Positions 7,300 to 24,361 of a stretch of DNA of 64,000 nucleotides are shown here, piece by piece. A program made the position numbers and the translations under genes. Source of the stretch: Syntrophorhabdales bacterium (GTDB lineage: Bacteria > Desulfobacterota > Syntrophorhabdia > Syntrophorhabdales > WCHB1-27); contig DATKNH010000046.1 in assembly GCA_035541455.1 (NCBI GenBank), positions 8,290-72,289 of the forward strand. Direction: 5' to 3'. Below the pieces are notes generated by a model that saw nothing but the letters and a program-made list of their open reading frames with translations, did no database searches and was not told the DNA's origin. Every line of letters begins with the position of its first letter. The stretch's first letter is position 1.

Positions 7300-9396
7300 T
7301 TACAGCTTGAACAGCAGGTCCGCATAACTGGGTACCGGCCACATATCCTCGGGAACGAGCATTTCTAACGCGTCGATATCTGCGCGCAGGGCCTGTATTG
7401 CTGTGACCACATTATCCCGGTAGCTTTCTGCCTTCTTCACCGTATTCGTAATGCCCTGCGCCTTCGCGACCGCTGCTTCAAGCCTGCCCAACGTCCTGTA
7501 AGAGGACTCCAGCAGCGACCCTATCTTCTCCAGAAGATCCTCCTGTACCGACGCCATGGCCGATGCTGATTTGAAGCTTTCGGCGGAGTCGGCGAGGAAA
7601 GTTGCATATTCGATCACTGCAGGTATGAACTGCTTCTTCACCATGTCGATTGCTGCCAGTGCTTCTATATTGATCTGCTTCGCATAATGGTCAACATAGA
7701 TGTCGTAACGCGAATGGAGTTCTTTGCGCGACAGGACTCCGTACTTATCAAACAGCTTGAGTGCCTTGTCCGTAACGAACGCTTTTAACGCGTCAACGGA
7801 GTTGGCTACGTTGGGAAGATTCCGCTTTTTCGCCTCTGCCATCCATTCTTCCGCATAGTTATTTCCATTGAAGATCACGCGGCTGTGCTTCTTGTAGATC
7901 TCTTTGATGATCGCCGCTGCTTCGGTGTTCTTGTTCTTGGCCTTCTCCAGCCTGGTGGCAATTTCGTCAAAGGCTTCTGCCGCGATGGTGTTCAACGCCA
8001 CATTCGGCCCTGAAATCGACTGTGCCGAGCCGACGGTCCTGAACTCGAACTTGTTACCGGTGAATGCGAACGGCGAGGTCCTGTTGCGGTCGGTGTTGTC
8101 CTTGGGGATCGCGGGAAGAGTGTCCACGCCGACCTTAACGAACTGTCTGCCTCTTGAGGAAATTTTTTGGCCTTTTGAAATCTTATCCAGAATGTCGGTC
8201 AGATCCTCTCCCATGAAAATGGATATAATGGCCGGAGGCGCCTCGTTCGCTCCAAGGCGGTGATCGTTGCCCGCATGCGCACAGGTAGCGCGCAGGATAT
8301 CCGCGTGCGTATCCACTGCCTTGATCAGTGCGCTCACAAACAGCAGAAATTGCACATTTTCTGCGGGCGTATGGCCTGGTTCCAGTAAATTGATGCCGTC
8401 GTCCGTTGAGAGCGACCAGTTGTTATGCTTTCCCGAACCATTGATGCCGGCATACGGTTTTTCGTGTAACAGGCAGACCAGGTCATGACGGAGCGCGACC
8501 TTCTGCATAGTCTCCATAACCAGCTGGTTGTGATCCGTGGCAACGTTGGTGGTGGCAAAAACCGGTGCCATTTCGTACTGCGCCGGTGCAACTTCGTTGT
8601 GCTGGGTCTTGGAAGTGATGCCCATCTTCCACAATTCGGTGTTGAGGTCCCGCATATAATCGGAGATCCTGTCTTTGATGGCGCCGAAGTACTGGTCCTC
8701 CAACTCCTGCCCCTTTGGCGCGGGCGCGCCGAAGATCGTCCGACCAGTGAGCATAAGATCGAGCCGCTCCAGATAAAATTTCTTGTCGACAAGAAAGTAC
8801 TCCTGTTCCGGACCAACAGTAGACGTTACTCTCATGGAAGTGGTGTTGCCGAGAGCCCTGAGCACGCGTAGCGCCTGTTTTGACGCGGCTGCCATGGACC
8901 GCAGCAGTGGTGTTTTTTTGTCGAGCGCTTCGCCGTTGTAAGAGTAAAAGGCGGTGGGGATTGTAAAGGTGACATTGCCGCTTTCGTCGGTCTTGAGGAA
9001 TGCGGGTGACGTGCAATCCCACGCGGTATATCCCCTGGCTTCGAACGTGGCGCGCAAACCGCCGCTGGGAAAAGAGGATGCGTCGGGCTCGCCCTGGATC
9101 AACTGCTTGCCGGAAAACTCCAGAATCACGCCTCCGTCGGCGGTTGGAGATATGAAGGAATCGTGCTTCTCGGCGGTTATCCCGGTGAGCGGCTGGAACC
9201 AATGGGTATAGTGGGTCGCCCCTTTCTCAATCGCCCAATCCTTCATGGCGTTCGCAACCACGTCGGCAACATCGGGGCGCAGCGGCGTGCCCTTTTCAAT
9301 CGTTTCCTTCAGAGCCTTGTAAATCTCCTTGGGCAACCGCTCCTTCATCACCTTATCGTTAAAAACGTTGGAACCAAAGACTTCTGTCAACTCCAT
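7300..9396 (-). CDS. glnN: Glutamine synthetase type III
   Basis: 698 aa. The length and N-terminus ([30 protein letters not shown]...[11 protein letters not shown]) are characteristic of GSIII. The internal [10 protein letters not shown] matches the GS ATP-binding region. Confidence 0.9.
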
Positions 9397-9678
9397 GATT
9401 TTCTCCTTTTCACATAAATATACTAATGCCTACGCACATGGCTTTAGCCTGTATGCATCACCCGTCAAATCTATGTGAACTTCTTTGTTCGATATCCTTG
9501 AATCCAGTGTGGACGCTGAAGGAAGACGCACGTCACTGTGCGCCCCATAGTCTAATGTATTTCAAAAACTTTTACAAGTGCGTAAAGCTGTCCTGCCCGT
9601 GGTGCAATTGAAAGCTCCGTCCAAGCCTGAATCAAGAATACATCGCAGCGGACTGACTAATCACGCCGAGGCGAGTTT

Positions 9679-17579: not shown

Positions 17580-17606
17580 AAAAAAGGGGCGCCCGATGGA
17601 CGCCCC
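17580..17606 (-). terminator. Intrinsic terminator-like hairpin 19 nt upstream of the mvhD start codon
   Basis: The minus strand reads GGGGCGUCC-auc-GGGCGCCCC (9 bp stem including one G.U) followed by UUUUUU. It lies downstream of the amidotransferase stop (17677) and immediately before the mvhD RBS. Confidence 0.6.
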
Positions 17607-17641
17607 TGTCGTTTGCGTGCACGCCTTCGTGCCGAAGCGTT

Positions 17642-17671
17642 ATCTTAACAAACCCGCAAATCCTTTGTCAA
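17642..17671 (-). promoter_or_regulatory. Sigma70-like promoter candidate (TTGACA-N18-TAAGAT) upstream of the mvhD leader terminator
   Basis: On the minus strand, TTGACA is at 17671-17666 and TAAGAT at 17647-17642. The same hexamers occur at the nuoA promoter candidate. The 18 nt spacing is slightly long. Confidence 0.35.
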
Positions 17672-18578: not shown

Positions 18579-20072
18579 CTACATGTCAAAGTACAGATGG
18601 AATTCGTAGGGATGCGGCCGCAAGCGGATCGGGTCTATCTCGTTCTCCCTCTTATATTCGACCCACACATCGATCACATCCTGTGTAAAGACGTTGCCCC
18701 TGAGCAGGAACTCATGATCCTTCTCCAGTGCACCGATTGCGGCTTCCAGGGAGCCGGGCACTGTTGGAATCTTTGCAAATTCTTCCGGATCCATGTGATA
18801 GGTGTCTACGTCAGTCGGTTTTCCAGGATCTATTTTGTTTATTATACCGTCAACACAGGCCATCATGATGGCAGGGAACGCGAGATAAGGGTTGCAGGTG
18901 CAGTCCGGCGGCCTGAATTCAAGCCGTTTAGCCTTCGGGTTGTCCGAATACATCGGAATTCTGACAGCGGCCGAGCGATTACGTGCCGAGTAGACCAGGT
19001 TGACCGGCGCTTCGTATCCCGGCACGAGTCTCTTGTATGAGTTTGTAGTCGGAGCACAGAAGGCAAGCAGGGCGGACGCGTGTTTCAGAAGGCCCCCAAT
19101 CGCATATTTGCCCAGTTTGCTGATGCCCGCATATCCAGCTGCGTCGTAGAAGATATTGGTACCTTTATTCCAGAGTGAGATGTGGGTGTGCATACCTGAG
19201 CCGTTGTCACCAAAGAGAGGCTTGGGCATGAAAGTCGCCACCATATTATTCTTTTTAGACACGTTCTTCACGATATACTTGTACATGAGACACTGATCTG
19301 CCATTTTAACCAGAGGACCGAATTTCATGTCGATCTCACACTGCCCGGCAGTTGCAACTTCGTGGTGATGCACTTCGACCTTTATCCCCGCCTTGATCAT
19401 AGTCAGGATAATTTTGCTCCTCAGGTCCTGGAGCGAGTCATGCGGCGGCACAGGGAAGTAACCCTCTTTGTAGCGAGGCTTATACCCGAGGTTCGGCTTT
19501 TCGTCGCGGCCCGAATTCCATTCGCCTTCGATGGAATCGATGAAGTAGTAGCCCGCATTCTCCGTCTGATCGAAGCGGATATCGTCAAAGATGAAAAACT
19601 CCTGCTCCGGACCGAAGAAACTCTGATCGGCAAAACCAGTTGTCTTCAGGAACTCTTCTGCTTTTTTTGCAACGTAGCGCGGGTCGCGGGTGTAGGGCTT
19701 CTTGGTAATCGGATCGTAAATGTCACACAAGACACTGAGCGTGGGCACCTCACAGACCGGATCGACCACAGCGGTAGTCGGGTCGGGCAGCAGGATCATG
19801 TCTGACTCGTTGATTTTCTGAAAACCCCTGATCGAGGACCCGTCAAAGCCGATCCCCTCTTCCCAGATGGACTGTACGGGATCATCGATCTCGGTCAATT
19901 CGGATGCTGGAATAGAAAAATGTTGCCACAGCCCGGGCAGATCATTGAACTTCAAGTCAACGATCTCGATCTTATTATCCTTTATCAGCTTCCCCACATT
20001 CTGTAGATCTTTTCCGGTTATGCCGCCATTCCAACGTATTGTCTTGTTCTTTTTTTCCGGGTTTTTGTCCAT
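18579..20072 (-). CDS. glnA: Glutamine synthetase type I
   Basis: 497 aa. Carries [43 protein letters not shown] and [13 protein letters not shown], with AAVRIP in the C-terminal part. Confidence 0.9.
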
Positions 20073-20185
20073 GGCTCCTCCTTAAAGTGTATGATCACAC
20101 TGTAACGACCCTACGTATTTGTGTGAAGTCGCGCCTCTCCTCTTGTGGGGGCGGACAAGCGCGTGTTTCTACACTAGTCCTGTCT

Positions 20186-20199
20186 GAACGTCGCTGTTC
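20186..20199 (-). promoter_or_regulatory. glnA leader hairpin with hexaloop AGCGAC
   Basis: The minus strand reads GAAC-AGCGAC-GUUC. The 11-mer GAACAGCGACG is shared exactly with the amtB leader (22020-22030). Confidence 0.35.
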
Positions 20200-20242
20200 G
20201 GAACGATAATAAGGAGTCCCTCGGAGTCGGTGAGGGGAAGCT

Positions 20243-20258
20243 GGTACGCCAATGTACC
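20243..20258 (-). promoter_or_regulatory. glnA leader hairpin with hexaloop AUUGGC
   Basis: The minus strand reads GGUAC-AUUGGC-GUACC (5 bp stem, hexaloop with A at position 1 and G at position 4). Confidence 0.35.
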
Positions 20259-20399
20259 GAAATACAAACTATACTTACACAGAACATTCCTAAATTTCAA
20301 GTGATAAGAGTAAACATCGGGCCTAGCTCTCCGGGCATCTAGGGCTTTTCGTTCTAGTGCCCGCGGGCGAATGACCCGATGTCGCGATAGGCGCACTTC

Positions 20400-20741
20400 C
20401 TATCCTATGGCTGTGCCTCCCTTCTCTCCTGTCCTGATGCGGATACACTCTTCGAGCGGCAGTACGAAAACCTTACCGTCGCCGATCTCACCCGTTCTGC
20501 CTCCGTTCAGGATAGCATTGATGGTGGACTCCACAAAATTATCATTTACTGCGATGAGGAGTTGCACCTTGCGCAACAGATTGCCCATCTCTTTAACGCC
20601 CCGGTACACTTCGGTGATACCCATCTGGCGTCCGTGGCCAAGCACCTCGCTGACCGTGATGAGATTTACCTCTGCTTTGTAGAGTTCCTGCTTCACGGCC
20701 TCCAGCCTATCCGGTTTTATGATAGCAATAATCAGTTTCAT
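20400..20741 (-). CDS. glnK: Nitrogen regulatory protein P-II (GlnK-type, encoded downstream of amtB)
   Basis: 113 aa from MKLIIAIIKPDRLEAVKQEL. The T-loop region is GHGRQMGITEVYRG and the C-terminus is GDGKVFVLPLEECIRIRTGEKG. The longer ORF start at 20780 would overlap amtB. Confidence 0.9.
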   Translation of the reverse strand: MKLIIAIIKPDRLEAVKQELYKAEVNLITVSEVLGHGRQMGITEVYRGVKEMGNLLRKVQLLIAVNDNFVESTINAILNGGRTGEIGDGKVFVLPLEECIRIRTGEKGGTAIG

Positions 20742-20751
20742 ACCCTTCCCC

Positions 20752-21981
20752 CTATTCAAGTATAGTGTAAGCGTGTTCATGGTGCTGTGTCAGGTCGAGT
20801 CCCATTATCTCGTCCTTCTCTTGTACCCTCATGCCCATGATCCAGTCAACAACCTTGTAAATAATCATGGTGCCAACAAAACTGTAGGCCAGCGTAATTG
20901 CCACTGCAAGCAACTGTATAAGGAACTGCTTAGGATTGCCGAAAAAGAGACCGTCAGCACCATCCGGGTTGATAAGCTTGCTCGCAAAAAGCCCTGTTGC
21001 CAGCGCTCCCCAGATGCCGCCGACACAGTGCACACCGAACGCGTCCAGAGAATCGTCGTATCCGAGCTTCGGCTTAACCACTGCTACGGCTATGAAGCAG
21101 ATCACACTCACAAAGATGCCGATGATGATCGCCGACATCGGCCCCACAAAGCCGGCGGCGGGCGTAATGGCAACAAGCCCTCCGACCGCGCCGGTTGCGG
21201 TACCGAAGATGGTCGGTTTTCCGTTCGTGATCCACTCAATGACCGCCCACGTCAACCCGGCAGTTGCGGCGGCCGTATTAGTCACGACGAAGGCATTTAC
21301 TGCCAGACCGTTCGCCGCCAGTGCGCTGCCCGCATTGAAGCCGAACCAGCCAAACCACAAAAGCGCTGTGCCGAGAACCGTATGGGGCAGATTGTGCGGA
21401 GGAACCGGGGCTTTGTCGTACCCCTTTCTCTTGCCTATAAAGAGCGCGGTTCCCAAGGCGGCGATGCCCGCATTGATGTGCACGACCGTACCGCCTGCAA
21501 AATCAAGCGCGCCAAGCTCCTTGAGCCAGCCGCCAACACCCCAGACCCAATGGGCAACAGGATCATAGATGAAGGTCGCCCAGAGCAAGGTGAAGAGGAG
21601 GAATGCCGAAAACTTCATTCTCTCCGCAAACGCCCCGATGATGAGGGCTGGCGTGATGACAGCGAACATTGCCTGAAAGATCATGAAGGCCGTGTGTGGT
21701 ATGGTGGGAGCGTAGTCCTTGAACGCATCTGCACCGACTCCCGCAAGCCCCACCCATTGGAGGCCTCCCCAAAACCCTTTACCCGGTGCGAACGAAAGAC
21801 TGTAGCCGAAGAGCACCCACTGGAGACTGAGGACACAGAGAATCGTAAAACATTGCATCAGTACACCCAGCACATTCTTTCGGCGTACCATGCCTCCGTA
21901 AAAAAAGGCCAGTCCCGGGGTCATGAGCATTACCAGGCCTGTAGAGATGAGAACCCATGCCGTATCACCTGCATTAATCAT
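20752..21981 (-). CDS. amtB: Ammonium transporter
   Basis: 409 aa. Carries AWVLISTGLVMLMTPGLAFFYGGMVR, DFAGGTVVHINAGIAAL, LLWFGWFGFNAGSA and DDSLDAFGVHCVGGIWG. Confidence 0.92.
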   Translation of the reverse strand: MINAGDTAWVLISTGLVMLMTPGLAFFYGGMVRRKNVLGVLMQCFTILCVLSLQWVLFGYSLSFAPGKGFWGGLQWVGLAGVGADAFKDYAPTIPHTAFMIFQAMFAVITPALIIGAFAERMKFSAFLLFTLLWATFIYDPVAHWVWGVGGWLKELGALDFAGGTVVHINAGIAALGTALFIGKRKGYDKAPVPPHNLPHTVLGTALLWFGWFGFNAGSALAANGLAVNAFVVTNTAAATAGLTWAVIEWITNGKPTIFGTATGAVGGLVAITPAAGFVGPMSAIIIGIFVSVICFIAVAVVKPKLGYDDSLDAFGVHCVGGIWGALATGLFASKLINPDGADGLFFGNPKQFLIQLLAVAITLAYSFVGTMIIYKVVDWIMGMRVQEKDEIMGLDLTQHHEHAYTILE

Positions 21982-22017
21982 GATTGTTCCTCCTTCCCAT
22001 TCCCTTGAAATAAAGAA

Positions 22018-22050
22018 GGCGTCGCTGTTCCAGCGTGGAACAGAGACGCC
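22018..22050 (-). terminator. Long hairpin with a U-rich tail 36 nt upstream of the amtB start (attenuator-like)
   Basis: The minus strand reads GGCGUC-u-CUGUUCCA-cgc-UGGAACAG-c-GACGCC followed by UUCUUUAUUUC. Confidence 0.4.
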
Positions 22051-22067
22051 TTCGTCTCACCCCTTGC

Positions 22068-22100
22068 AATAAAAATGGCGCTCTCGTGAGAAAGCGCCAT
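22068..22100 (-). terminator. Rho-independent terminator between the two amt paralogs
   Basis: The minus strand reads AUGGCGCU-uucucacgag-AGCGCCAU followed by UUUUUAUU. Confidence 0.55.
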
Positions 22101-22239
22101 CGATGGCTTACACTTCTTCGTGCAGACCCAGTCTCTGGGTAACTCTATTTACAAGTAAACGCGCTGCCCTTTTGGTAACCATCCCGCCAACTCCCCACTG
22201 CCCACTAGTTTACGTCCGCTCAGCCCTCACGTTTGACTA

Positions 22240-22270
22240 TAACTGCTCACTGCTTACTGCTCACTTATAG
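22240..22270 (-). repeat. Heptamer-repeat spacer immediately after the amt2 stop codon
   Basis: The minus strand reads AAGTGAGCAG TAAGCAG TGAGCAG TTA. The 16-mer taactgctcactgctt (22240-22255, + strand) is identical to 50948-50963. Confidence 0.6.
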
Positions 22271-22276
22271 CCATCG

Positions 22277-23506
22277 CTATTCTAACAGGGTATACGCGTG
22301 TTCATGATGCTGGGTTAGGTCAAGCCCCATAATCTCCTCTCGATCAGGCACCCTGACCTTTACCAGCACGTTCACAAATTTCATGATAAGGTAGGTCACG
22401 ACGAGGCTGTAGACCGTAACCACTGCCACAGCCGTGAACTGCACGAGGAGCTGGCGGGGATTGCCGTACAGTAATCCGTCGGCACCTGCGGGATTAATTG
22501 CCTTCGACGCGAAAAGCCCCACAGCAAGTGTACCAAGCATGCCACCAACACCGTGCACGCCAAAAGCGTCGAGGGAATCATCGTAACCAAGACGCGGCTT
22601 TATCTCGGCAACAGCAATGAAGCAGACAACGCTTGCCGCGCACCCTATCGCAGACGCGGCTCCTGCGGTGACGAAGCCGGATGCGGGAGTGATGGTCGCA
22701 AGACCTGCTATTGAGCCGGTAATGGTGCCGAATATAGTCGGTTTCCCATTAAAAACCCACTCAAGGAGTGCCCATGTGGCACCCGCGCTCGCTGCTGCGG
22801 TGTGTGTCACGAGAAAGGCGTGCACCGCCAATTCATTTGCGGCCAGTGCGCTGCCTGCATTGAAGCCGAACCAGCCGAACCACAGGAGCGCTGTGCCGAG
22901 AACCGTAAAGGGAAGGTTGTGGGGCGGCACAGGCTTATTTTCGTACCCCTTTCTCCTCCCGATCATGAGCGCGGTCACGAGAGCAGCGATACCTGCGTTG
23001 ATGTGGACGACCGAGCCTCCTGCGAAATCGAGCACACCCAGCTCCTTCAACCAGCCTCCAGCACCCCAGACCCAGTGGCAAACCGGGTCATACACAAAGG
23101 TGGCCCAGAGTACCGTAAAAAGCAAGAACGCCGAAAATTTCATTCGTTCGGCAAAGGCACCGATGATGAGAGCAGGTGTAATGATAGCGAACATGGCCTG
23201 GAAAAGCATGAACAGCTCATGCGGAATCGTAGCTGCGTAATCTGCGTAAGGCTTGAAGCCGACACCGTTCAAACCGAACCAGCTCAAACTGCCGAAGAAG
23301 CCTTTTGATGGCGCAAATGAAAGGCTGTAGCCGAATAGAATCCATTGCAGCGACAATATGCACAGCACGGTAAAGCACTGCATCAGAATGCCAAGAATAT
23401 TCTTTCGCCGCACCATGCCGCCGTAGAAAAAGGCAAGTCCCGGGGTCATGAGCATGACGAGCCCTGTACAGACGAGTACCCACGCGGTATCACCGGTATT
23501 GATCAT
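22277..23506 (-). CDS. amt: Ammonium transporter, second paralog
   Basis: 409 aa, about three-quarters identical by eye to 20752-21981 (the same motif set: DFAGGSVVHINAGIAAL, LLWFGWFGFNAGSA, DDSLDAFGVHGVGG). Confidence 0.92.
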   Translation of the reverse strand: MINTGDTAWVLVCTGLVMLMTPGLAFFYGGMVRRKNILGILMQCFTVLCILSLQWILFGYSLSFAPSKGFFGSLSWFGLNGVGFKPYADYAATIPHELFMLFQAMFAIITPALIIGAFAERMKFSAFLLFTVLWATFVYDPVCHWVWGAGGWLKELGVLDFAGGSVVHINAGIAALVTALMIGRRKGYENKPVPPHNLPFTVLGTALLWFGWFGFNAGSALAANELAVHAFLVTHTAAASAGATWALLEWVFNGKPTIFGTITGSIAGLATITPASGFVTAGAASAIGCAASVVCFIAVAEIKPRLGYDDSLDAFGVHGVGGMLGTLAVGLFASKAINPAGADGLLYGNPRQLLVQFTAVAVVTVYSLVVTYLIMKFVNVLVKVRVPDREEIMGLDLTQHHEHAYTLLE

Positions 23507-23600
23507 GATTCTCCTCCTCCCGAAGTAGTGGAAAGAACTGCTTCGCGCCGCCCGTCATTCCCGTAACGAAAGACGCGTCATGCTGCAGCGTGGAATAAAT

Positions 23601-23630
23601 AAAAAAAGGGCGTCCTCGTAAAGAACGCCC
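23601..23630 (-). terminator. Intrinsic terminator inside the amt2 5' leader
   Basis: The minus strand reads GGGCGUUCU-uuacg-AGGACGCCC (9 bp stem, one G.U) followed by seven U. It lies about 95 nt upstream of the amt2 ATG and downstream of the promoter candidate at 23681-23709. Confidence 0.6.
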
Positions 23631-23639
23631 TTGGTCTCT

Positions 23640-23657
23640 CTACACGTCAACGTGTAG
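23640..23657 (-). promoter_or_regulatory. amt2 leader hairpin (CUACAC-GUUGAC-GUGUAG)
   Basis: A perfect palindrome ctacacgtcaacgtgtag. The core CAC..TGACGTG is shared with the glnN leader hairpin at 9527-9542. Confidence 0.4.
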
Positions 23658-23680
23658 CTTGTTCGCTCCGCTGCACGAGC

Positions 23681-23709
23681 ATGATACAGATTTTTTAATT
23701 TTTTTGCAA
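23681..23709 (-). promoter_or_regulatory. Sigma70-type promoter candidate for amt2 (TTGCAA-N17-TATCAT)
   Basis: On the minus strand the -35 TTGCAA is at 23709-23704, the spacer is 17 nt and A/T-rich, and the -10 TATCAT is at 23686-23681. Confidence 0.5.
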
Positions 23710-23713
23710 GAAA

Positions 23714-23749
23714 AACCTGCGTCGAGGCATGCTGTGAACCGCGCAGGTT
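23714..23749. terminator. Orphan hairpin flanked by A- and T-runs (bidirectional terminator-like)
   Basis: aaaaa-ACCTGCG-(20 nt)-CGCAGGT-tttttt. No annotated gene ends next to it on either strand. Confidence 0.3.
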
Positions 23750-23889
23750 TTTTCGAGGTGCGTAATACCGGACTTATAACGTAGGCCCGGGTTGATATTC
23801 CGGTCGCCAGGCGGGCTCTCAAGCAGAATCTAACGCACGCATACCGCGACAGCTACGGATCTGCAAAGCATCGCTGTTTGTTCTTGCCA

Positions 23890-23936
23890 GTCGGAAAAAT
23901 CCGACCAGATGCTTTTACGCGTCGGAAAAATACGAC
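23890..23936. promoter_or_regulatory. Two palindromic sites (GTCGGA-AAAA-TCCGAC and GTCGGA-AAAA-TACGAC), candidate enhancer-binding-protein UAS
   Basis: There is a perfect 6-4-6 inverted repeat at 23890-23905 and a one-mismatch copy at 23921-23936, 31 bp centre to centre. Further TCGGAAA half-sites begin at 23964 and 24008. They lie 105-150 bp upstream of the sigma54 promoter candidate. Confidence 0.45.
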
Positions 23937-24041
23937 TGCCCGCGCCGCAATCGCACAAAATGCTCGGAAATTCTGAACGCTGCTCGCGTCAAGCCCCTAA
24001 TTTTGCTTCGGAAAAACGCATTCTCTCTCATTAACGAACTG

Positions 24042-24057
24042 TGGCATAGCTGATGCA
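24042..24057 (+). promoter_or_regulatory. Sigma54 (-24/-12) promoter candidate
   Basis: TGGCATagctgATGCA has GG and GC at the canonical 12-nt offset of the consensus TGGCACG-N4-TTGCA. It lies 50 nt upstream of the ATG at 24107. Confidence 0.55.
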
Positions 24058-24106
24058 TCTAGAGGTTCTCAGGAAGTATTAAATAACACAACGGAGGTAG
24101 GGAAGA

Positions 24107-24361
24107 ATGAAGAAGGCATTGATGTTCGTGTTCGCAGTAGTGATTGCGGTTGCATTCGCAGCCACCGGCTTCGCGCAGGCACCGGCAGCGGCACCTGAGA
24201 AACCGGCAGCACCGGAGAAGATGGAGAAGAAAGAGCCGGCTAAGGAGAAGAAGGCTCCGAAGAAGAAGGCTCCGAAGAAAGAGAAGAAGGCAGCTCCGAA
24301 GGAAGAGAAGAAAGAAGCTCCTGCGCCTGCGCCTGCGCCCGCTCCTGCGCCTGGCAAGTAA
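24107..24361 (+). CDS. Small secreted Lys/Pro/Ala/Glu-rich low-complexity protein
   Basis: 84 aa with RBS ggaggtaggg and a signal peptide (MKKALMFVFAVVIAVAFAATGFAQA). The mature part is APEKPAAPEK...KKAPKKKAPKKEKKAAPKEEKKEAPAPAPAPAPAPGK. A terminator follows. Confidence 0.65.
   Translation: MKKALMFVFAVVIAVAFAATGFAQAPAAAPEKPAAPEKMEKKEPAKEKKAPKKKAPKKEKKAAPKEEKKEAPAPAPAPAPAPGK

Follow-up and report, generated by a model that had tools for sequence, protein, structure and literature searches.

A probable ANTAR-type transcription attenuator in the 5′ leader of an ammonium transporter gene from a Syntrophorhabdales bacterium

Introduction

Why should an intrinsic transcription terminator lie between the promoter and the start codon of an ammonium transporter gene? 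The question is raised by a 64,000-nt stretch of a Syntrophorhabdales genome (assembly GCA_035541455.1, contig DATKNH010000046.1, positions 8,290–72,289; hereafter, the window), whose minus strand carries a nitrogen-assimilation cluster according to the list of open reading frames (ORFs) and to Pfam matches. The element studied here precedes the upstream amt gene of this cluster (amt-1, with its ATG at 23506) and constitutes its 5′ leader. An earlier reading of the letters alone (the sequence-only reading) had described a promoter, a perfect hairpin and a terminator in this leader and had proposed an attenuator, a riboswitch or protein-mediated antitermination. The results presented below support conditional termination and narrow the choice to the protein-mediated option: it is probable, at roughly 80%, that the leader acts as a protein-dependent, ANTAR-type transcription attenuator controlling amt-1. 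The element is of a known kind (ANTAR antitermination), real and recurrent, and is found here in a new lineage.

Two hairpins and a terminator in the amt-1 leader

All of the elements listed in the sequence-only reading were found again at the same minus-strand coordinates by re-reading the sequence, scanning and folding. The gene and the main features of its leader are as follows.

22277..23506, minus strand: amt-1, the gene presumed to be regulated, whose 409-aa product belongs to the Amt family of ammonium transporters (the identical protein matches PF00909)
23681..23709, minus strand: sigma-70-like promoter of amt-1, consisting of TTGCAA (23709–23704), a 17-nt spacer and TATCAT (23686–23681)
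23640..23657, minus strand: first hairpin (P1), CUACAC-GUUGAC-GUGUAG, with a hexaloop at 23651–23646 and G at loop position 4
23621..23638, minus strand: second hairpin (P2), the putative antiterminator, GAGACC-AAGGGC-GUUCUU, with a hexaloop at 23632–23627, A at loop position 1 (A1) and G at position 4 (G4)
23601..23630, minus strand: intrinsic terminator, with the stem GGGCGUUCU / AGGACGCCC at 23630–23608 and U7 at 23607–23601

The palindrome CUACACGUUGACGUGUAG at 23657–23640 corresponds to P1. The terminator consists of a 9-bp stem (5 G-C, 3 A-U and 1 G-U pairs), a 5-nt loop and U7, with a folding energy of −15.0 kcal/mol, and its hairpin directly precedes the U tract on the transcribed strand, as is characteristic of intrinsic terminators. 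The whole leader folds better than 200 of 200 shuffled sequences (z = −3.3).

P2 had escaped the sequence-only reading, as had the pairing of the first hairpin with it as its partner P1 and the recurrence of the device at four other leaders in the window. In amt-1, P2 is formed by five pairs and one C × U mismatch, and its loop is AAGGGC. The P2 loop and 3′ arm (23632–23621) overlap the 5′ arm of the terminator (23630–23622), and because the stretch 23630–23621 is shared, the two structures are mutually exclusive. The ‘perfect hairpin’ and the terminator of the sequence-only reading are two parts of one device. This register of P2 is kept in the three closest relatives of the window (L081, L167 and L170; described in the next section); an alternative register, AAG-GGCGUU-CUU, is not and was rejected.

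The RNA substrate of ANTAR proteins, as described in PMC3369931, is a dual hexaloop with conserved A1 and G4 in which P2 overlaps a terminator, and the same paper reports such elements upstream of genes for ammonium transporters, P-II, glutamine synthetase and glutamate synthase. The amt-1 leader contains two tandem hexaloop hairpins with G4 in both and the overlap of P2 with the terminator, and A1 is found in P2 only, P1 having G at this position (G1). Because G4 is the only base-specific contact between EutV and RNA, A1 being uncontacted (PMC8934654), G1 represents a deviation from the consensus rather than grounds for exclusion.

Folded alone, P2 reaches only −0.9 kcal/mol in amt-1, and −4.2 and −1.8 kcal/mol in the leaders of the downstream amt gene (amt-2) and of the flpD operon, which contain copies of the device (see below), compared with −15.0, −18.1 and −18.6 kcal/mol for the respective terminators. 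With so weak a P2 opposite such strong terminators, termination is the default, and P2 wins only in the presence of a stabilizing factor. That factor could in principle be a metabolite, with a riboswitch for glutamine, 2-oxoglutarate or a similar compound controlling the terminator, and a terminator in the 5′ leader of a nitrogen gene fits such a device. Nevertheless, P2 by itself lacks the stability to compete unless a protein assists it, and the RNA ahead of the terminator, with only approximately 17 unstructured nucleotides and an 18-nt hairpin, is smaller than the known aptamers require. The sequence-only reading had recognized no glutamine or nitrogen riboswitch consensus and had suggested an Rfam search; cmscan with the Rfam gathering thresholds gave no match in the whole window, and at E ≤ 10 the region 19900–24200 yielded only noise matches to small RNAs and snoRNAs and no riboswitch, including those for glutamine (glnA RNA and Downstream-peptide). 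The riboswitch option of that reading is thus unsupported and barely credible. T-box and PRD-RAT elements, for which no matching family was found, were dismissed. Leader-peptide attenuation was also dismissed, there being no short ORF with a ribosome-binding site (RBS) between the promoter and the terminator.

Conservation and covariation in related leaders

The relatives used for comparison are Syntrophorhabdales-like metagenome contigs. Close ones, reached via protein look-ups, comprise L081, L170 and L167 (with Amt proteins 94, 91 and 95% identical, respectively) as well as L171, L172, L168 and L169 (79–80%). Scans of genome and metagenome contigs gave mainly distant Amt homologues, L081 being the sole close one. 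The closest Amt homologues with a source name are proteins of metagenome-assembled genomes (MAGs) of Syntrophorhabdaceae or Syntrophorhabdales (75–80% identity), and six metagenome contigs encode the exact Amt protein of the window, preceded by a leader with 99.7% identity. No sequence conservation emerged when the window leaders were compared by blastn with 80 genome loci encoding Amt relatives of at most 72% identity.

The architecture is retained in the amt-1, amt-2 and flpD leaders of these relatives. The sequence-only reading had proposed aligning the leaders of relatives as a check, and in an alignment of 16 leaders from the window and the seven related contigs both P1 and the terminator proved to be conserved with compensatory changes. 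Their combined pairing amounts to 94.6%, and in 22 cells both sides have changed; this was not attained in any of 500 shuffles, and slid controls were 35–58% paired. P1 alone is 97.5% paired, two of its five pairs having changed on both sides, and the terminator helix is 93.1% paired, with such changes in five of nine pairs (e.g. C-G to U-A in L167).

G-U pairs are frequent in the P1 stem (6 of 16 leaders at one position), which points to a constraint on the sense-strand RNA rather than on a DNA palindrome. This bears on a further explanation, namely that a dimeric repressor uses the 18-bp palindrome, located downstream of the promoter, as its DNA operator. Its form, CTACACGT-TG-ACGTGTAG, is indeed an 8-2-8 DNA palindrome at approximately +18 to +35, but the G-U pairs that maintain the stem would be mismatches in DNA and preserve pairing on the sense strand only, and the loop is non-palindromic in other copies. 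An operator is accordingly a most improbable explanation.

The loops are conserved at specific positions. Position 4 is G in all loops, including those of all 16 related leaders, whereas positions 2 and 3 vary; orthologous loops read, for example, GUUGAC, GCUGAC, GUCGAC and AUUGAC, or AUCGAU, ACUGAU and AUUGAU. The P1 loop starts with G in the closest clade of the window but with A in L171, L172, L168 and L169 and in the flpD leader of L167. Dual hexaloops with G1 also occur in loci of other phyla that encode an ANTAR gene (L004 and L039) and in L026 and L107. CsrA-type binding was dismissed, as no GGA is conserved in the loops.

Recurrence of the device in the nitrogen-gene leaders

The P1–P2–terminator design occurs three times in the window, in the leaders of amt-1, amt-2 and flpD, always on the sense strand before nitrogen genes, and in each case the P2 loop and 3′ arm form the 5′ arm of the terminator. 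The hairpin and terminator of amt-1 and amt-2 can be aligned as homologous between these paralogues. The amt-2 leader contains, in addition, a second attenuator in tandem, and the leaders of glnA and of the type III glutamine synthetase gene contain pairs of hexaloop hairpins. The features concerned are as follows.

22069..22124, minus strand: second copy, in the amt-2 leader, with P1 UGCAC-GAAGAA-GUGUA (22124–22109), P2 GCC-AUCGAU-GGC (22107–22096; register discussed below) and a terminator at 22101–22074 plus a U run
22008..22058, minus strand: tandem second attenuator of the amt-2 leader, with the hexaloop hairpin GAGAC-GAAGGC-GUCUC (22058–22043) overlapping a long terminator (22053–22015) followed by UUUAUUU
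17580..17671, minus strand: third copy, in the leader of the flpD-methylenetetrahydrofolate reductase (MTHFR)-glutamate synthase operon, with the promoter TTGACA-N18-TAAGAT (17671–17642)
Within the flpD leader, minus strand: P1 GCAC-GAAGGC-GUGC (17632–17619), P2 GAC-AGGGGC-GUC (17610–17599) and a terminator at 17606–17586 plus U6
20186..20258, minus strand: glnA leader with two hexaloop hairpins, GGUAC-AUUGGC-GUACC (20258–20243) and GAAC-AGCGAC-GUUC (20199–20186)
9477..9543, minus strand: leader of the type III glutamine synthetase gene, with GCGCAC-AGUGAC-GUGCGU (9543–9526) and GAAC-AAAGAA-GUUC (9490–9477)

The genes downstream of these leaders and the other members of the cluster are the following.

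20752..21981, minus strand: amt-2, the second amt gene of the cluster
18579..20072, minus strand: glnA, likewise a nitrogen cluster member
Minus strand: glnK (P-II); a class-I amidotransferase gene; flpD-like, MetV and MetF (MTHFR) genes; and three genes for glutamate-synthase-type subunits
7300..9396, minus strand: type III glutamine synthetase gene, a further nitrogen cluster member

Two registers are possible for the P2 of amt-2, GCC-AUCGAU-GGC or one homologous to that of amt-1; the former, with three G-C pairs and the conserved A1 and G4, was tentatively retained and may be the relevant one. The amt-2 loops in L081 and L170 are GGUGAA and ACUGAU or AUUGAU, positions 1 and 4 being kept. 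The tandem arrangement of hexaloop and terminator is also present in L168, L169, L171 and L172, and orthologues of the flpD leader occur in L167, L168, L169 and L172.

In the leaders of glnA and of the type III glutamine synthetase gene, the A1/G4 hexaloops are paired at a distance of 35–45 nt, and no intrinsic terminator was found after the pairs in these leaders. Both glnA hairpins are kept in L167 (loops AUCGAC and AGUGAC); in L172, only the second one (GAAC-ACCGAC-GUUC) was seen, and the gene downstream is not glnA but an unannotated ORF of 94 aa. These observations suggest that the same protein also acts at the two glutamine synthetase genes, and if it does so, the lack of a terminator implies that it must use another route there, such as Rho-dependent termination or an effect on translation or RNA stability.

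The recurrence exceeds chance expectation. A descriptor for a hexaloop hairpin followed by a hexaloop hairpin that overlaps a terminator gave five matches in the window compared with 0.5 in dinucleotide shuffles, and four of the five are located on the sense strand of the amt-1, amt-2 and flpD leaders. A second descriptor, chosen post hoc, for C-G-closed hexaloop hairpins carrying R and G at loop positions 1 and 4, respectively, gave eight matches in the 861 nt of nitrogen-gene leaders, compared with 0.56 expected (P ∼1.5e-7).

The same recurrence is relevant to the suggestion in the sequence-only reading that the region encodes a short terminated RNA. A promoter, a hairpin and a strong terminator would be expected to give a stable short transcript, and one may envisage that this unit is chiefly a gene for a trans-acting small RNA of approximately 74 nt, read-through into amt being incidental. 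In that case, however, one would not expect the same layout directly upstream of three different operons, among which the sequence from P1 to the terminator differs. Moreover, conservation concerns the structure and positions 1 and 4 of the loops rather than a seed-like sequence, and no Rfam small RNA was matched above noise. A dedicated small RNA gene is therefore unsupported and very unlikely; a secondary role for the terminated by-product of an attenuator is possible.

Search with an independent covariance model

Ten dual hexaloops from other lineages and phyla, excluding the relatives of the window, served to build a covariance model (R1); for six of them, Pfam confirmed an ANTAR gene in the source locus (L004, L007, L039 and L047). 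In a search space of 128 kb, R1 ranked the flpD leader first (15.4 bits), amt-1 third (12.7 bits, E = 0.65), the second unit of amt-2 fourth and P1–P2 of amt-2 10th. The amt-1 match spans 23657–23622 and aligns the amt-1 P2 as P2, and R1 also has matches touching the leaders of glnA and of the type III glutamine synthetase gene. On 100 kb of relatives, the top 23 matches were all on the gene strand, and those checked fall in identified leaders. The ranks and the strand bias are convincing, whereas the individual E-values are not.

Linkage to a GAF-GAF-ANTAR gene in relatives

ANTAR-domain genes were identified in nine Amt loci of the genome scan by consensus-based phmmer with Pfam confirmation, and four of the nine (L004, L007, L039 and L083) also hold dual hexaloops. 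Genes of the GAF-(GAF)-ANTAR type are located beside the orthologous clusters of L167, L168, L169 and L172 and are also present in L083 and L004. In L168, L169 and L172, the order is the GAF-GAF-ANTAR gene, a small regulator gene and amt; in L167, the GAF-GAF-ANTAR gene lies approximately 6 kb upstream. Furthermore, a GAF-GAF-ANTAR gene 92% identical to that of L167 is present in assembly ERZ27256600, which also holds the exact Amt protein of the window, and the leader that follows this gene contains P1, P2 and a terminator. Linkage in the relatives and this co-occurrence in one sample are what point to an ANTAR gene in the genome from which the window derives.

The GAF-GAF-ANTAR family comprises more than 6000 proteins at E ≤ 1e-40, the top 120 listed being 71–92% identical to the query. 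Literature searches found no report characterizing the family, which includes the protein at L169:7641-8861 and for which JGI gives only the name ‘signal transduction protein with GAF and PtsI domain’. The best NCBIfam matches relate the first GAF domain to that of PtsP (EI-Ntr) and the second to the N-terminal GAF domain of NifA. The GAF domains of PtsP and NifA bind glutamine and/or 2-oxoglutarate. By analogy with these domains, the signal of the regulator may be 2-oxoglutarate or glutamine, sensed directly.

Several observations weigh against an ANTAR-type attenuator. No ANTAR-domain ORF was found within the 64-kb window. The P1 loops of all three terminator-linked leaders of the window start with G instead of the consensus A, and in amt-1 the loop nucleotides G1 and C6 can pair to close a tetraloop: CUACACGUUGACGUGUAG folds either with 6 bp and a hexaloop (−7.3 kcal/mol) or with 7 bp and a tetraloop (−9.1 kcal/mol), the latter being preferred by 1.8 kcal/mol in RNAfold, and EutV is thought to discriminate against tetraloops (PMC8934654). 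The amt-1 P2 requires the C × U mismatch, and pairing of the P2 register drops to 68.8% over the whole family, although lower pairing is expected for a helix that needs a protein. The E-values of single R1 matches are not significant (0.18–5.7), owing to the small size of the model. Assignment to the ANTAR-target class thus carries two reservations, the G1 variant and a partner protein deduced from relatives rather than seen in the window.

Three of these points (the window without an ANTAR gene, the departure of P1 from A1 with its possible tetraloop, and the weak E-values of R1) are also what favours another reader of the hairpins, that is, an RNA-binding protein without an ANTAR domain, or a terminator that serves as a constitutive ‘dimmer’ with no regulator at all. 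Against these stand the GAF-GAF-ANTAR gene adjoining the cluster in all long contigs of close relatives, the presence of G4 in every loop, the fit of the P2 loop to the site AANGGC of GnfR (PMC2995071) and the alternation of A and G at position 1 among orthologous P1 loops; for a constitutive dimmer, the conserved P1 and P2 would also be needless. We consider both variants unlikely and retain the ANTAR-type attenuator as the preferred reading.

Proposed mechanism

The RNA structures and their mutual exclusivity, the covariation, the recurrence and the linkage to ANTAR genes in relatives are observed; the identity of the protein, its binding, its signal and the direction of regulation are what we infer in the following model. 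Transcription would start approximately 7 nt after TATCAT, near 23674, and the nascent RNA would first fold P1 as a stable hexaloop hairpin. By default, the terminator (−15 kcal/mol plus U7) would then form and a transcript of approximately 74 nt would be released; this OFF state is expected under nitrogen sufficiency. When active, the regulator, a dimeric ANTAR-domain protein, would bind the G4 hexaloops of P1 and then P2, stabilizing the weak P2 (−0.9 kcal/mol) and thereby holding the 5′ arm of the terminator, so that RNA polymerase would read into amt. Read-through would constitute the ON state, expected under nitrogen limitation. The regulator is predicted to be a one-component GAF-GAF-ANTAR protein encoded elsewhere in the genome, as in the close relatives, and the same switch may gate the second amt-glnK unit and the flpD-MTHFR-glutamate synthase operon.

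Such a mechanism would explain how an uncultured anaerobe gates, after transcription initiation, the uptake of ammonium as well as its genes for glutamine synthetase and glutamate synthase. A single RNA motif marks no fewer than five leaders within the 16-kb nitrogen cluster. The motif also offers a rule for annotation, in which candidate ANTAR regulons are recognized by a G4 hexaloop hairpin and, after it, a second one embedded in a terminator; no Rfam family matched these leaders.

Promoter, upstream region and RBS-proximal part of the leader

The sequence-only reading had described the amt-1 promoter as strong. TTGCAA-N17-TATCAT is present at 23709–23681, but its strength is not borne out, since the site scores 9/12 against the consensus, the minimum of the scan, and the nine sites of that level in a 7-kb region compare with 4.7 expected (approximately 2-fold). 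The position of the −10 element is kept in L081, L170 and L167 (TATAAT or TATACT), exactly 23 nt before P1; in these relatives, the element reads CTTGTATACT or CTTGTATAAT. By contrast, the −35 box is lineage-specific: TTGCAA lies in a segment that is missing from the same three relatives, whose amt-1 promoter has TTAC(T)G-like −35 boxes and CTTGTA, whereas the window has the inserted TTGCAA and the −10 element CTGTATCAT. No properly spaced sigma-54 promoter (GG-N10-GC) was seen upstream of the amt-1 leader on inspection by eye.

The segment in question, approximately 90 nt long (∼23790–23695, minus strand), holds both the TTGCAA box and an additional hairpin.

∼23711–23753, minus strand: A/T-flanked ‘orphan’ hairpin (−17.2 kcal/mol, z = −2.5)

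The segment is absent from L081, L170 and L167 and has no second copy in any sequence compared. It looks like a lineage-specific insertion that parted an ancestral −35 from the −10 element and supplied a new sigma-70-like −35. The orphan hairpin with its A and T runs, noted in the sequence-only reading, is present, but a functional role for it is unsupported, as it is absent from the three relatives.

Farther upstream, two copies of a 16-bp inverted repeat, GTCG[T/G]ATTTTTCCGAC, were observed at ∼23937–23922 and 23903–23888 (minus strand), approximately 34 bp apart; they are located approximately 215–260 nt upstream of the amt promoter and 170–215 nt from a divergent gene at 24107. Both are kept in L081 and L170 although the flanks diverge, and they probably represent a transcription-factor site. 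The divergent gene, a small ORF at 24107–24361 (plus strand), encodes 84 aa with a signal-peptide-like N-terminus and a low-complexity tail rich in Ala, Pro, Lys and Glu; it adjoins amt in contigs of the same organism and in L170, and no Pfam match is on record.

Downstream of the terminator, the U tract is followed by 94 nt of leader before the ATG at 23506, in agreement with the approximately 95 nt of the sequence-only reading, and two further hairpins are found in this part.

23521–23545, minus strand: RBS-proximal hairpin CGAAGCAG...CUACUUCG, with seven pairs and one mismatch
23545..23576, minus strand: post-terminator hairpin with the apical hexaloop CGGGAA, conserved according to RNAalifold on the window, L081, L167 and L170

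The former had been noted in the sequence-only reading and exists as described, but it is not conserved in the relatives, and a functional role for it is unsupported. In the relatives, the loop of the latter reads UCGGGG or CGGGGA, position 4 being G throughout. This hairpin can be aligned with the second terminator of amt-2 but has no U tract; it may represent a decayed second attenuator or another protein-binding loop.

A putative sigma factor and an associated promoter-like motif

In the relatives, the gene between the GAF-GAF-ANTAR gene and amt is a small one initially labelled ‘GerE (weak)’ (L167:3523-4056, L168:9036-9674, L169:9053-9691 and L172:6600-7304), which has no homologue in the window. 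Judged by its profile matches, it is an extracytoplasmic function (ECF)-type factor of the sigma-70 family: NCBIfam TIGR02937 scores 53.7 and 51.1 bits on the copies of L167 and L172, respectively, against a cut-off of 42.9. Its own leader contains an ANTAR-type P1 and P2 with a terminator, which suggests that the sigma factor itself is under ANTAR control.

The amt-2 leader of the window is preceded by a promoter-like motif that differs from the promoter of amt-1.

22150..22178, minus strand: promoter-like motif of amt-2, TTACCA-N17-CTTGTA, which recurs before ANTAR-type leaders

The motif TTACCA-N16/17-(A)CTTGTA, whose hexamer spacing is that of the sigma-70 family, occurs 24 times in 3.46 Mb, 23 of the copies being on the gene strand, and those read in context are located just upstream of ANTAR-type leaders. 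It was found in the window, L004, L087, L081 and L167–L172. All six loci that encode a homologue of the sigma factor, including L087 and an Omnitrophota MAG (L004), contain the motif, and none of the loci with response-regulator-type ANTAR proteins does. An element ACTTGTA is also present in the type III glutamine synthetase leader (9579–9573). A literature search on TTACCA-N17-CTTGTA as a promoter motif retrieved no relevant report. The motif may be a promoter read by the ECF-type sigma factor.

On this basis a wider circuit can be sketched, which we advance only tentatively and with considerable doubt. The amt-1 leader would be one node of an undescribed system that replaces NtrBC and sigma-54 in Syntrophorhabdales-like bacteria and some Omnitrophota: the GAF-GAF-ANTAR protein would directly sense the nitrogen status and antiterminate both the adjacent ECF-type sigma gene and all nitrogen-assimilation operons, and the sigma factor would read the TTACCA-N17-CTTGTA motif conserved in the promoters of these operons, thereby forming a coherent feed-forward loop. 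The insertion of approximately 90 nt would have rewired amt-1 of the window to a sigma-70-like promoter while the ANTAR gate was kept. The linkage of a sigma factor and its motif to an ANTAR gene would be of wider interest if confirmed.

Comparison with known ANTAR systems

The closest known counterpart of the amt-1 leader is the GnfK/GnfR system of Geobacter. GnfR of Geobacter sulfurreducens, a response regulator with an ANTAR domain, antiterminates nifH, and amtB and glnK of Geobacter carry terminator-like signals with the conserved CAGGCAANGGCGCC (GGC-AANGGC-GCC) (Ueki and Lovley 2010, PMC2995071). Both systems place terminators in the leaders of nitrogen genes (amtB, glnK and nif in Geobacter), have a hexaloop element, CAGGCAANGGCGCC in Geobacter, that overlaps the terminator, and respond to nitrogen limitation, a response that is expected for the window; both hosts are Desulfobacterota-type anaerobes, and the amt-1 P2 loop AAGGGC fits the Geobacter loop AANGGC (PMC2995071). 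They differ in the regulator, which is phosphorylated by a kinase in Geobacter and is a one-component GAF-GAF-ANTAR protein in the relatives of the window, and in the promoters, which depend on RpoN (sigma-54) with GnfL/GnfM in Geobacter but are sigma-70-like or TTACCA-N17-CTTGTA in the window. The P2 stems also differ, being AAC/GUU, GAC/GUC and GCC/GGC in the window and GGC/GCC in Geobacter.

The tandem hexaloops, the location of P2 within the terminator and the essential G4 are shared with the EutV/EutW system of Enterococcus faecalis eut (Ramesh 2012, PMC3369931; Walshe 2022, PMC8934654), in which the device is likewise repeated at several terminators of one gene cluster. The eut genes, however, serve ethanolamine use and are controlled through a histidine kinase sensor, whereas the leaders of the window precede nitrogen-assimilation genes and the predicted sensor consists of GAF domains; in eut, A1 is present in the loops of both hairpins, whereas P1 of the window leaders has G1, and the linker of 1–8 nt between the hairpins of the window leaders is a further difference. 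NasR (a NIT-ANTAR protein acting on the Klebsiella nasF leader) and AmiR provide precedents for one-component, ligand-sensing ANTAR proteins with a hexaloop upstream of a leader terminator at nitrogen-source genes, although their sensors are a NIT domain or the partner AmiC and their signals are nitrate and amides.

The ANTAR regulons predicted for Desulfotomaculum and Pelobacter agree with the window in gene classes, RNA motif and the presence of several copies per cluster. They are computational predictions for other lineages, and the available text of PMC3369931 describes neither a Syntrophorhabdales-type cluster nor a GAF-GAF-ANTAR protein. The amt-1 leader and its copies would thus add a new lineage, and a partner of the GAF-GAF-ANTAR type, to the findings on Geobacter GnfR and the predictions of Ramesh 2012.

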